Source of the DNA: Minisyncoccota bacterium
GTDB lineage: Bacteria > Patescibacteriota > Minisyncoccia > JBAYJV01
Assembly: GCA_041664925.1 (NCBI GenBank)
Contig: JBAYJV010000003.1
Span: 21,179-85,178 of the forward strand
Length of the DNA: 64,000 nt
Direction: 5' to 3'
Positions 62,165 through 63,524 of this stretch are shown piece by piece (positions within the stretch are counted from its first letter, which is position 1; every line of letters starts with the position of its first letter). The position numbers were made by a program, and so were the translations under genes. The notes beneath the pieces were generated by a model that searched no databases, had not been told where the DNA came from, and saw only the letters and a program-made list of their open reading frames with translations.

Positions 62165-62610
62165 CTTTTCTAATTCTAATGCACGAGATTAAAATCCGTG
62201 CATTTTTATTTCATTAAGATCAATTAGTCCCGCGCAAGAATCTTCGGGATGAGATCATAATTATCTGCGACTTAGATTATCAAAATCGAGAGTTTCATAT
62301 TCTCAGCTATGGATTAACTGATCTAAGATTCATTTCATTTATCAAGATCAGTTAGCCCCGCGCAAAAAAGATAATTGGTTTTACCTCATTTCATTATTCA
62401 TAATGTGGTTGCCATTTTCATATTCTCAGCTGTGGGCTTAATGGTCTAAAACTTGCTATGCTCGTTAAGACCATTTAGTCCCGTGGAAGAAAAGACAAGA
62501 GAGTATAGTCAATATATAGTGGCATATCGCTTCGGGTTTTTTTGAACAATCTCAACTATGGACTAAACACCCTAAAATTCAGTCTTCATTAAGGGTGTTT
62601 AGCACTCTTG
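62165..62610 (+). repeat. Four tandem units of about 110-125 bp. Each has conserved flanks (TTCATATTCTCAGCTATGG ... TTAGTCCCGCGCAAG) around a hairpin whose 11-12 bp arms differ between units
   Basis: Arms are ATTAACTGATCT/AGATCAGTTAG, GCTTAATGGTCT/AGACCATTTAG and CTAAACACCCT/AGGGTGTTTAG, which is structure-preserving covariation. Confidence 0.6.
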
Positions 62611-62722
62611 ACCCTTCGACTTCGCTCAGGGCGAGCCAATAATATAGTTATGAGTAATCAATTTGTAAAAGACTTGTTTCAAGTTTGTTAACGAATTGGC
62701 AGTCTTGACACGGGAGTGCTAA
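62599..62722 (+). promoter_or_regulatory. CIRCE-like half-sites TTAGCACTC (about 62599) and GAGTGCTAA (about 62714) upstream of hrcA, separated by about 106 nt instead of the usual 9. TTGACA at about 62704
   Basis: Exact CIRCE half-site sequences seen directly. The spacer contains a copy of the 24-bp dispersed motif. Confidence 0.35.
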
Positions 62723-62828
62723 GGGAGTAAACTATGTAGCATAAACTTCAGATTTTAAACAGGAAATTAAGCATTGTATCTCGGATTCTAACTTCTAGCT
62801 TCTAACTTCTGACTTCTAAATTCTAGTT

Positions 62829-63524
62829 ATGGAATTAACCAATCGACAAAAAGAAGTACTAACTTCGGTAATTCAAGAATATTCTAAAGAAGGCAAGCCC
62901 GTGGCTTCGCTTGATTTGGCTCAAGAATATGATTTTTCCGATTCACCAGCAACTATTAGGGCTGAGATGAGCTTTCTTGAAAAAGAAGGATTTTTGGAAA
63001 AACCTCACACTTCTGCTGGTCGTGTACCGACAGAAAAAGGTTATCGCTTTTACGTTAAAGAATTGATGAAAAGAAAAGAATTAGGAGAAGGCGATAAGAG
63101 AAAAATAAAAGTCAGAGTCAACGAGATAAAAAAAGAAGACGATTTTCATCAAGAGTTAGCAGAGGTTTTGTCCAATTTTAGCAATTCATTGGTTATGGTT
63201 GGCCAGGAAGAAGAAAACCATCTCTATTTTTCTGGACTTGATGAGCTTCTTGAAACAATGGACAGAGAAATGTTTTATAGCGTCGCCCATTTTTTAGAGG
63301 AAACAGAAAGGGACATGGACGATCTTGTTGAATATTCAAATAACGAGCCAAACATTTTTATCGGACAGGATCACCCATTGCTTAAAGGAGCTAAATGCGG
63401 ACTAATCATCTCAAGATACCGAAGAGGTGGTGACAATGGCGTTGTTGCTCTTTTAGGGCCGGACAGAATGGACTACGAAAGAAATCTTTCATTAATTCAA
63501 TATATTAATAAAATTTTGCAGTAA
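62829..63524 (+). CDS. hrcA: heat-inducible transcription repressor HrcA
   Basis: N-terminal winged helix MELTNRQKEVLTSVIQEYSKEGKPVASLDLA. Whole-length HrcA-like. grpE follows. Confidence 0.8.
   Translation: MELTNRQKEVLTSVIQEYSKEGKPVASLDLAQEYDFSDSPATIRAEMSFLEKEGFLEKPHTSAGRVPTEKGYRFYVKELMKRKELGEGDKRKIKVRVNEIKKEDDFHQELAEVLSNFSNSLVMVGQEEENHLYFSGLDELLETMDREMFYSVAHFLEETERDMDDLVEYSNNEPNIFIGQDHPLLKGAKCGLIISRYRRGGDNGVVALLGPDRMDYERNLSLIQYINKILQ

Follow-up and report, generated by a model that had tools for sequence, protein, structure and literature searches.

The DNA analyzed here (the window) is a stretch of 64,000 nucleotides (nt) from a Minisyncoccota bacterium (contig JBAYJV010000003.1) that carries the gene for the heat-shock repressor HrcA close to its end. 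hrcA is the first gene of a chaperone cluster with the order hrcA-grpE-(two acyl-carrier-protein-like genes on the minus strand)-dnaK-dnaJ, and is separated from a DUF5654 gene by a spacer of 670 nt (62159-62828). The closest named homologues of this HrcA are from Patescibacteria, also termed the candidate phyla radiation (CPR), with Moranbacteria at ~41% identity. The region upstream of hrcA is identical across three independent assemblies of the source organism. The spacer contains an ordinary promoter with an HrcA operator, the inverted repeat that controls the expression of chaperones (CIRCE), accompanied by two oddities: an amplified, clade-specific stem-loop and an insertion that the operator survived (Table 1). 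Open reading frames (ORFs) of at least 20 amino acids (aa) in this region were discarded, none being noteworthy and none being conserved in L004, one of the related hrcA loci (numbered with an L) used for comparison. These loci were gathered via HrcA homologues and by scanning contigs of metagenomes and genomes for a DNA pattern. The HrcA search of the genome contigs gave no relatives; the DNA-pattern scan of the same contigs gave one true orthologue, L043, its other matches being for the most part unrelated CIRCE promoters from Saccharibacteria.

Table 1. Features of the hrcA upstream region, in window coordinates.
Feature	Position	Strand	Remarks
DUF5654 gene	61766-62158		Pfam match
Intrinsic terminator of the DUF5654 gene	62180-62208	+	TGCACG...CGTGCA, then TTTTT; from sequence and fold
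U0 remnant	62205-62240	+	3' end of loop and 3' arm AAGATCAATTAG, then box A TTAGTCCCGCGCAAGAA; direct-repeat families D1 and D3; box at 62224, 0 mismatches
U1 module, 5' flank and hairpin	62291-62355	+	Covariance model 76.9 bits, E 3.8e-13; inverted repeat I5, 100% complementary; arms 62314-62324/62345-62355, loop 20 nt
Box A copy 2, TTAGCCCCGCGCAAAAA	62352-62368	+	Directly 3' of the U1 hairpin
U2 module, 5' flank and hairpin	62414-62478	+	Covariance model 74.5 bits, E 1.2e-12; inverted repeat I1; arms 62437-62447/62468-62478, one T-T mismatch
Box A copy 3, TTAGTCCCGTGGAAGAA	62475-62491	+
U3 module, diverged 5' flank and hairpin	62540-62602	+	Covariance model 72.8 bits, E 2.5e-12; inverted repeat I2; arms 62563-62573/62592-62602, 11/11 paired
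Orphan CIRCE left half and start of -35, TTAGCACTCTTGAC	62599-62612	+	Upstream member of 14-nt direct repeat D7
83-nt insertion absent from L004	62613-62695	+	Alignment with L004; first 25 nt (62613-62637) are the dispersed repeat CCTTCGACTTCGCTCAGGGCGAGCC
Near-canonical CIRCE, TTGGCAGTC-TTGACACGG-GAGTGCTAA	62696-62722	.	9-nt spacer, two left-half mismatches
hrcA promoter, TTGACA-17-TAAACT	62705-62733	+	10/12 matches, best promoter-like site in the region
hrcA, 231 aa	62829-63524	+	Pfam HrcA and HrcA_DNA-bdg

The architecture of this promoter is that of the CIRCE/HrcA class I operons, in which the inverted repeat TTAGCACTC-N9-GAGTGCTAA precedes hrcA-grpE-dnaK-dnaJ, with hrcA alongside. A search of the window for this repeat with up to three mismatches returns the site in Table 1 as its sole match, where 0.01 would be expected by chance, and the site lies 106 nt upstream of hrcA. 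The -35 hexamer TTGACA (62705-62710) lies inside the CIRCE spacer, and the -10 hexamer TAAACT is at 62728-62733. The same layout, TTRGCACTC-TTGACAnnn-GAGTGCYAA with a -10 hexamer 17 nt after TTGACA, is observed in all eight relatives with readable sequence (L004, L008, L011, L012, L014, L016, L018, and L022). The main differences from the class I operons are the left half of the operator, TTGGCAGTC, with its two mismatches, the presence of an orphan exact half 97 nt upstream, the short HrcA, and the placement of the -35 hexamer inside the CIRCE spacer throughout the clade. Because the -35 hexamer lies in the CIRCE spacer, HrcA would be expected to repress by occluding the -35 hexamer and spacer; repression at this promoter is expected from known HrcA/CIRCE biology, and the layout itself rests on comparison. 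HrcA operators overlap the core promoter in Helicobacter, as CIRCE does here (PMC6032397).

An earlier examination of the window by sequence alone (the sequence-only reading) had reported that the exact CIRCE halves are 106 nt apart and had concluded that HrcA control is disrupted or rewired. The two exact halves, TTAGCACTC at 62599-62607 and GAGTGCTAA at 62714-62722, are indeed separated by 106 nt that include an insertion with a dispersed repeat. However, TTGGCAGTC at 62696 had been overlooked; it has the 9-nt spacing and overlaps the promoter as in every relative, and the comparison with relatives that had been proposed as a check finds the canonical spacing at the same position in all eight. 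A CIRCE broken by the insertion, with hrcA-dnaK either off normal HrcA control or run by the half-sites 106 nt apart, can claim a real insertion and a promoter-proximal left half with two mismatches. Those mismatches, A3G and C7G, also weigh against an operator of full strength: the two halves are no longer symmetric, and HrcA affinity may be reduced because one of the changes falls within the conserved CACTC core. Against a broken operator, a half-site with 7/9 matches stands at the canonical 9-nt distance, and its spacer, the right half, the -35, and the -10 correspond to those of the relatives. Both kinds of departure are also found in natural hrcA CIRCEs of related bacteria: TTGG left halves are usual in the clade (L008, L012, and L014), and a CAGTC/GACTG core variant is present in L027, in which the right half, GACTGCCAG, is the reverse complement of CTGGCAGTC. 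In addition, hrcA itself remains intact, and the arrangement is a fixed one, shared by three independent samples. We therefore give a broken CIRCE a low probability. HrcA control is probably intact, perhaps weakened, and the claim of disruption or rewiring is largely refuted on its own terms, with a weakened operator the most that is left of it.

The origin of the second, exact left half is apparent from the comparison with L004. In L004, a single unit is continuous with a perfect CIRCE and the 14-nt sequence is present once, the junction reading ...AGATCAGTTAGCACTCTTGACAGGGGAGTGCTAAGGGAGTAAACTAT; in the window it reads ...GGGTGTTTAGCACTCTTGAC, then 83 nt, then TTGGCAGTCTTGACACGGGAGTGCTAAGGGAGTAAACTAT. 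The 83 nt are bordered by the 14-nt direct repeat D7, TTAGCACTCTTGAC and TTGGCAGTCTTGAC, whose copies are 86% identical and spaced 97 nt apart. The window differs from L004 by extra units and a 97-nt step. Deleting one 14-nt repeat and the intervening 83 nt regenerates the canonical hairpin-CIRCE junction. The exact half at 62599 is read as an orphan because the 14 nt are duplicated around the insertion. A point against this account is that the target duplication could instead be of 7 nt (TCTTGAC), with TTGGCAG resembling TTAGCAC by chance. Under either scheme, 14 nt followed by two later changes or 7 nt, the alignment leaves a predicted operator with 9-nt spacing in place. Further copies of the repeat that opens the insertion, CCTTCGACTTCGCTCAGGGCGAGCC, are located at 60955, 61255, and 61567 (in an array at 60950-61600), in an array at 45110-45316, and at 46706.

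Upstream of the insertion lie three full tandem units (U1, U2, and U3) and one 5'-truncated remnant (U0), with a period of 123-128 nt. As judged from the sequence and a repeat finder, a unit comprises a conserved 5' flank, an 11-bp hairpin, and a loop of 18-20 nt; measured from just past one TTAG through the next, each unit is 123-128 nt in length, with a box termed box A first and the hairpin last. The sequence-only reading had counted four hairpin units of about 115 nt. The period is longer, and the first of the four (62165-62240) holds only the 3' part of a unit, the DUF5654 terminator occupying the place expected for the 5' half of U0, including its 5' arm. The conserved flanks that it described are present, the 5' flank in three units and the box after U1, U2, and U0, except that the 5' flank of U3 has diverged. 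The flank reads TTTCATATTCTCAGCTRTGG; the form TTCATATTCTCAGCTATGG is exact at 62294, has one mismatch at 62417, and is more diverged in U3. The box TTAGYCCCGYGSAAGAA follows the first two units and also the remnant U0, and the 3' box TTAGYCCCGYGSAAG, at 62224, 62352, and 62475, has five matches in the window at up to three mismatches, versus 0.9 expected by chance. The expected unit hairpins are obtained in the predicted folds (z = -4.7, -2.0, and -2.7). The arms had been described as 11-12 bp in length, completely different between units, and perfectly complementary. Each of the three units does have an 11-bp hairpin, and the ~5 middle pairs vary in a complementary manner, but the outer CTAA/TTAG and the inner CT/AG are conserved, and pairing is perfect in U1 and U3 only, U2 having the T-T mismatch. 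The variable part of the stem with its inner pairs reads CTGATCT/AGATCAG in U1 and in L004, ATGGTCT/AGACCAT in U2, ACACCCT/AGGGTGT in U3, and ACACTCT/AGAGTGT in L012.

This genome has many perfect inverted repeats of 10 bp or more (37 rows, versus 3.4 in Markov simulations), so a hairpin by itself is not special here; the family status of the units comes from their shared flanks and their orthologues. A covariance model, R1, built on the flank and hairpin detects the three units in the 64-kb window with E values of 4e-13 to 2.5e-12, and the next-best match has an E value of 0.078. The 123-128-nt array is not reported by Tandem Repeats Finder because the units are too diverged. A related single unit that had been placed at 6563-6680 is unmatched by R1 at E<=10 and shares only a 13-nt string with U2. 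The sequence at 6556-6685, which follows a gene ending at 6484, is a long-range inverted repeat, GTCCCGCGAACTT ... AAGTTTTGCGGGAC, with its arms ~85 nt apart; it is not a member of the unit family, although it has a GTCCCGCG motif in common with box A, and 13 of its nt recur in the U2 loop. As for box A itself (TTAGTCCCGCGCAAG...CTTCGGGA), it may be the relic of a gene end and terminator seen in relatives. In L008 (4540-4790), L022 (reverse), and L014 (~300-350), a small conserved ORF located between tRNA-Leu and the module ends in ...PIVP-stop (codons CCCATAGTCCC), and its terminator begins at GTCCC.

In the relatives, R1 identifies exactly one site each in L004, L012, L008, L014, L022, and L025/L043, in every case directly upstream of hrcA, at HrcA identities to the window of 96% (L004), 64% (L008), 62% (L012), and 59% (L014). 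The module of this clade is ~65 nt in length and comprises a conserved 22-nt flank, a stem of 11-12 bp with a covarying core, and a ~20-nt loop with conserved ends. Sequence conservation is seen in the flank, with the invariants TCT.A..T..GG..T.A, and in the loop ends, CTAAR ... TTCRTTAAG. In module-bearing relatives, the 3' arm and the CIRCE left half overlap by four bases, TTAG or TTGG, which end the former and begin the latter, and the center of the stem is ~60 nt upstream of the inferred transcription start, which is assumed to be 7 nt after the -10 hexamer. The more distant L011, L016, and L018 have a CIRCE without the module. In 64 kb of this genome and ~280 kb of related loci, every copy found lies in the hrcA upstream region. 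Across the DNA compared, the module is locus-specific, conserved among orthologues of a small clade, and present in more than one copy in this genome alone.

The evidence that the stem is maintained comes from nine distinct module copies, which are related to one another and from which the structure was itself derived. Among these copies, pairing holds in 85.9% of cells, and both partners have changed in 6/11 stem pairs (15 cells). Their covariation score of 0.449 compares with 0.16 in shuffles and is reached by none of 500 shuffles, and sliding the partner by 1-3 columns lowers the score to 0.04-0.12. Because 6/11 pairs have changed on both sides across the nine copies, stem complementarity appears to be maintained, and the signature of stem selection that the sequence-only reading saw in the window is thus upheld and extends to the orthologues of other species. 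Compensatory change of this kind argues that the module is a structured cis element under selection for pairing. The module has a mean column identity of 72%, and the flanking intergenic DNA is unalignable among L012, L014, L008, and L022; this conservation of the flank and loop ends within unalignable surroundings argues for function rather than mere shared descent. The stem is not maintained everywhere, which counts against selection for pairing: L047 keeps a flank-like sequence and has no hairpin, the stems of L014, L022, and L008 are AT-rich and imperfect, and L025 has no stable fold. It has also been observed that template switching during replication can mimic compensatory change (PMC8794818).

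The array appears to be old. U1 and its upstream spacer are ~95% identical to L004, the four-fold sites of hrcA differing by 29%, and U1 is the orthologue of the sole unit of that locus (L004 4800-4864, likewise ~95% identical). In comparison, the conserved blocks of U1, U2, and U3 are 68-82% alike and their spacers are unalignable, such that the duplications look older than the split between the window and L004. A remnant unit and box A also precede the single unit in L004 and L022, and a two-copy state is therefore old as well. L004 may have lost copies by a deletion from TTAG to TTAG, or the extra copies may have come to this genome by recombination. A single compensatory pair separates the U3 stem from that of L012. 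With ~5% divergence from L004, the U0-U1 block is strongly conserved, but this should not be over-read, since the hrcA-grpE spacer is equally conserved. That spacer (180 nt) is ~95% identical to L004, as compared with a 29% difference at four-fold sites, and appears to be under constraint as well, as a grpE/dnaK promoter or another element.

The explanation that we favor has five parts. Transcription would proceed from the sigma-70-type promoter, which HrcA bound to the 9-nt-spaced CIRCE would occlude. The ancestral state of the clade would have been a single module directly upstream, whose final 4 nt also open CIRCE. The 123-128 nt that run from box A to the terminal TTAG of the hairpin would have been tripled in tandem in this genome, most simply through old duplications bounded by microhomology. 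A later 83-nt insertion with a dispersed repeat would have split the junction between hairpin and CIRCE, duplicating TTAGCACTCTTGAC and leaving the TTGGCAGTC copy operative. We hold these four parts, jointly, with good confidence. The fifth part, that the module would be a stem-loop or palindrome recognized by a protein and would serve as an auxiliary upstream element (a second operator or a boundary) of the HrcA-controlled promoter rather than as an independent RNA gene, is a tentative proposal drawn from the analysis, and one that could well be wrong. The explanation taken as a whole is, as a compromise between these two assessments, a little more probable than its negation.

Recognition by a protein is suggested because the flank and loop ends are conserved as sequence and the stem core is free to change as long as it is paired, and a role in control of the hrcA promoter is suggested because the junction between hairpin and CIRCE is fixed. 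An analogous arrangement is found in the dual-operator promoters of Helicobacter and Campylobacter (HspR with its HspR-associated inverted repeat, HAIR, and HrcA with CIRCE), in which there is also a second inverted repeat upstream of a CIRCE-controlled core promoter. HAIR is CTTGAGT-N7-ACTCAAG. The module, by contrast, has a sequence with no relation to HAIR, its arms are 18-20 nt apart and differ from copy to copy and from species to species, and the operon has no MerR-like gene. In H. pylori, the HspR sites are centered at -72 and -117 upstream, and HrcA is on the core promoter (PMC6032397). Inspection by eye of the conserved flank (invariant TCTYA) for a motif of the extracytoplasmic function (ECF) or sigma-32 type revealed no conserved -35 partner. 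Several observations weigh against a protein-recognized auxiliary element. A candidate binding protein did not emerge: the 172-aa conserved gene that follows dnaJ encodes a membrane protein and not an HspR. The presence of three different stems in one genome disfavors a simple sequence-specific dimer site, unless only CTAA/CT...AG/TTAG and the flank need be read. Finally, no unit adjoins the promoter in this genome now, and yet the units are intact; a role that depends on spacing would be broken.

As an alternative to an auxiliary protein-recognized element, the units could be old tandem duplications of the hrcA upstream region without function, kept complementary by template switching or quasi-palindrome correction and not by selection. 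A single template-switch event can create or repair perfect stems and so mimic compensation (PMC8794818), the stem is lost or degraded in L025 and L047, the units no longer adjoin the promoter in this genome, and repeats and palindromes are generally abundant in the genome. However, template switching leaves unexplained why the paralogues, with spacers that cannot be aligned, share a conserved flank, loop ends, and box A, and why the same blocks are conserved between species whose HrcA proteins are ~60% identical and whose surrounding DNA is unalignable; we consider this alternative unlikely. That the units instead encode a structured RNA, whether an array of small RNAs (sRNAs), a plus-strand read-through leader, or a minus-strand RNA running from the hrcA -10 region through CIRCE and the hairpin, is quite unlikely, even though the covarying stem, the conserved loop ends and flank, and the single-unit folding z-scores of -2.0 to -4.7 would all suit it, as would the co-directional upstream genes at all hairpin-bearing loci. 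Tandem sRNA arrays, such as LhrC1-5 and PrrF1/2, consist of units of ~100-130 nt, each with a conserved stem-loop, and the array is similar to them in this respect, whereas no promoter or terminator is detectable for each unit here and the single copy of the relatives is fused to the operator. On the plus strand, consensus scans for sigma-70-like promoters found none before U1-U3 except a weak AAGACA-17-TATAGT before U3, and none conserved in orthologues; the unit hairpins are followed by CCCCGCG, TCCCGTG, or CACTC, without the U-tract of an intrinsic terminator. In L012, only ~20 nt lie between an upstream terminator hairpin and the module. Minus-strand candidates do exist, namely TTTATA-17-TATAGT just downstream of the hrcA -10 in L004 and L012, and TTGATA-18-TATGAT at 62283-62254, which is conserved in L004; the candidates are, however, in low-complexity ACTATA repeats, absent in L014, and weak in the window. 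The sole wobble pairs (T-G, plus strand) fall where the TTGG variant of CIRCE dictates. No Rfam family is matched: in a search of the window against Rfam 15, only two tRNAs reach the gathering score, a tRNA and transfer-messenger RNA scan likewise yields two unrelated tRNAs, and at 61700-62900 (E<=10) the best scores are 12-18 bits versus gathering thresholds of 44-112. The minus-strand TTGATA-18-TATGAT is located in the U0-U1 spacer and points away from hrcA; L004 has substitutions only in the spacer of this promoter-like sequence, and other orthologues have no equivalent. A minus-strand fold with three hairpins (62224-62360, z = -3.3), obtained when the 131-nt U0-U1 block was folded on both strands, was set aside, as it is not conserved in other units or distant orthologues.

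Upstream transcription enters in another way if the hairpins are transcriptional insulators, or roadblocks, against read-through, with copies added as upstream genes were inserted. Every hairpin-bearing locus has a co-directional upstream gene. Of the loci that lack the module, the upstream gene is divergent in L016, and in L011 the very position of the hairpin is taken by a canonical terminator whose T-tract runs into TTAGCACTC. Such a role is nevertheless improbable. Intrinsic terminators combine a GC-rich stem, a loop of 3-8 nt, and a U-tract; the unit hairpins were missed by the terminator scan because their stems are AT-rich, their loops are 18-20 nt, and they lack a U-tract. The genome abounds in canonical GC-rich terminators and has them ahead of the module already, and the conserved flank and loop ends would be left unexplained. 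We give hardly any credence to a small mobile palindromic element targeting TTAG, of the kind of miniature inverted-repeat transposable elements (MITEs), repetitive extragenic palindromic (REP) sequences, palindrome-associated transposable elements (PATEs) of the IS200/IS605 type, or attC-like sites. Each unit does begin after TTAG and end with TTAG, a Y1 (HUH) transposase gene (55442-56125) is syntenic with hrcA and lies directly upstream of the module in L012, and by sequence the hairpin ends loosely resemble attC core sites. On the other side, no copy lies beyond the hrcA upstream region in the DNA searched, the arms differ among copies rather than being near-identical, the position of the module is constant across species, no integron integrase was seen, and the Y1 gene is bordered by another, GC-rich hairpin family, ATATGTGGGAGGCTSAGCCTCCCACATAT, whose seven copies make it the obvious REP partner. 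Assignment to a MITE or IS200/IS605 element was accordingly rejected (a single locus in 64 kb of this genome, the same position in seven lineages, arms not conserved), as was a partnership of REP and REP-associated tyrosine transposase (RAYT) with the Y1 gene, since the module is found only upstream of hrcA and the Y1 gene is flanked by a different hairpin. The module is similar to REP sequences and the bacterial interspersed mosaic elements (BIMEs) that contain them, to pneumococcal BOX elements, and to Neisseria Correia elements in being a short, non-coding inverted-repeat module of variable tandem copy number near promoters, but those occur as tens to hundreds of dispersed, near-identical copies and the module at one locus, orthologously conserved. 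Very improbable, in turn, is a structural switch coupled to the HrcA operator. Because the 3' arm shares TTAG/TTGG with the CIRCE left half, stem-loop extrusion and HrcA binding would be mutually exclusive. Extrusion could take place at the DNA level, as a hairpin in AT-rich DNA that is negatively supercoiled upstream of an active promoter, or at the RNA level, within transcripts that read through or run antisense.

Gene regulation in the Patescibacteria is almost unexplored, and the locus provides an example of CPR HrcA/CIRCE control with a fixed layout in which the -35 hexamer lies in the operator spacer. It also illustrates that an operator can survive an insertion through duplication of its own half-site, and it presents a conserved stem-loop of a small clade, fused to CIRCE and with covarying arms, that has no described counterpart. 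Should the stem-loop bind a factor or switch structure, a very widespread heat-shock operator would prove to have a new cis-regulatory partner; otherwise, the stem-loop would be a clean natural case of a palindrome kept complementary through duplication and divergence. Were the switch real, CPR bacteria, which lack sigma-32, would gain a second, HrcA-independent input to chaperone expression (temperature, supercoiling, or a stem-loop-binding protein), and the triplication here would be a dosage variant.

Several other features of the window were observed in the course of the analysis. In the chaperone cluster, the two small PP-binding (acyl-carrier-like) genes on the opposite strand between grpE and dnaK are at L001 11445-12109, in the same genome just past the window end; one or two PP-binding genes are also located between grpE and dnaK in relatives, an unusual interruption of hrcA-grpE-dnaK-dnaJ. 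The hrcA-grpE spacer contains a palindrome, CCTGCCTGTCGGCAGACAGG, at 63565-63584, which is seen again at ~59451-59490, upstream of an ORF of 54 aa. This ORF (59561-59725) and one of 254 aa (59872-60636, with an N-terminal CxxC) have no Pfam match; an assignment by eye of the latter to the IS110 C-terminal domain was dropped, there being no Pfam match at E<=0.01. The two ORFs lie between the copies of a non-coding tandem array with a period of ~36 nt, GGCGAGCCAA-N8-10-AGGCAAYAA-N8-10, which spans 60860-61760 on the plus strand and recurs beyond them as a short inverted copy at 59200-59320. The same array is also present in L004, after a 345-aa homologue. In some of the ~36-nt repeats, the 24-nt dispersed motif sits within GGCGAG^CCAA. 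The dispersed repeat, CCTTCGACTTCGCTCAGG in the minus-strand sense, forms a 25-nt x 8.3 tandem array at 45110-45316 (98% matches) and is also found at 46699-46731 and 30994. The copy at 46706 is bordered by a 7-nt direct repeat, ACGTAAG, and resembles a tiny insertion with a target duplication; an uninterrupted version, ...GGCGAGACGTAAG..., is located at ~45388.

The REP-like palindrome ATATGTGGGAGGCTSAGCCTCCCACATAT has its seven copies in the 64 kb at 7345-7377, 29211-29245, 30949-30973, 44960-44996, 46151-46175, 55373-55409, and 56085-56119. Two of them bracket the Y1 gene, which encodes a 227-aa IS200-like transposase (PF01797), a RAYT/REP-type arrangement in a CPR genome, and L012 has its own palindrome variant, ATCGGAGGCCGAGCCTCCGAT, around the orthologous Y1 gene. 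Close to this gene is an intact tRNA-Leu(CAA) (56521-56606) with tRNA-Leu-like fragments around it, a 5' part at ~56207-56260 and a 3' part at ~56612-56708. In the D-arm region of each fragment is a palindromic insert, CCTGCC(T)GCCGGCAGGCAGG, and a small GIY-YIG ORF lies between the fragments. The region 56200-56700 may represent a tRNA gene, interrupted or duplicated, that has received a homing-endonuclease insertion.

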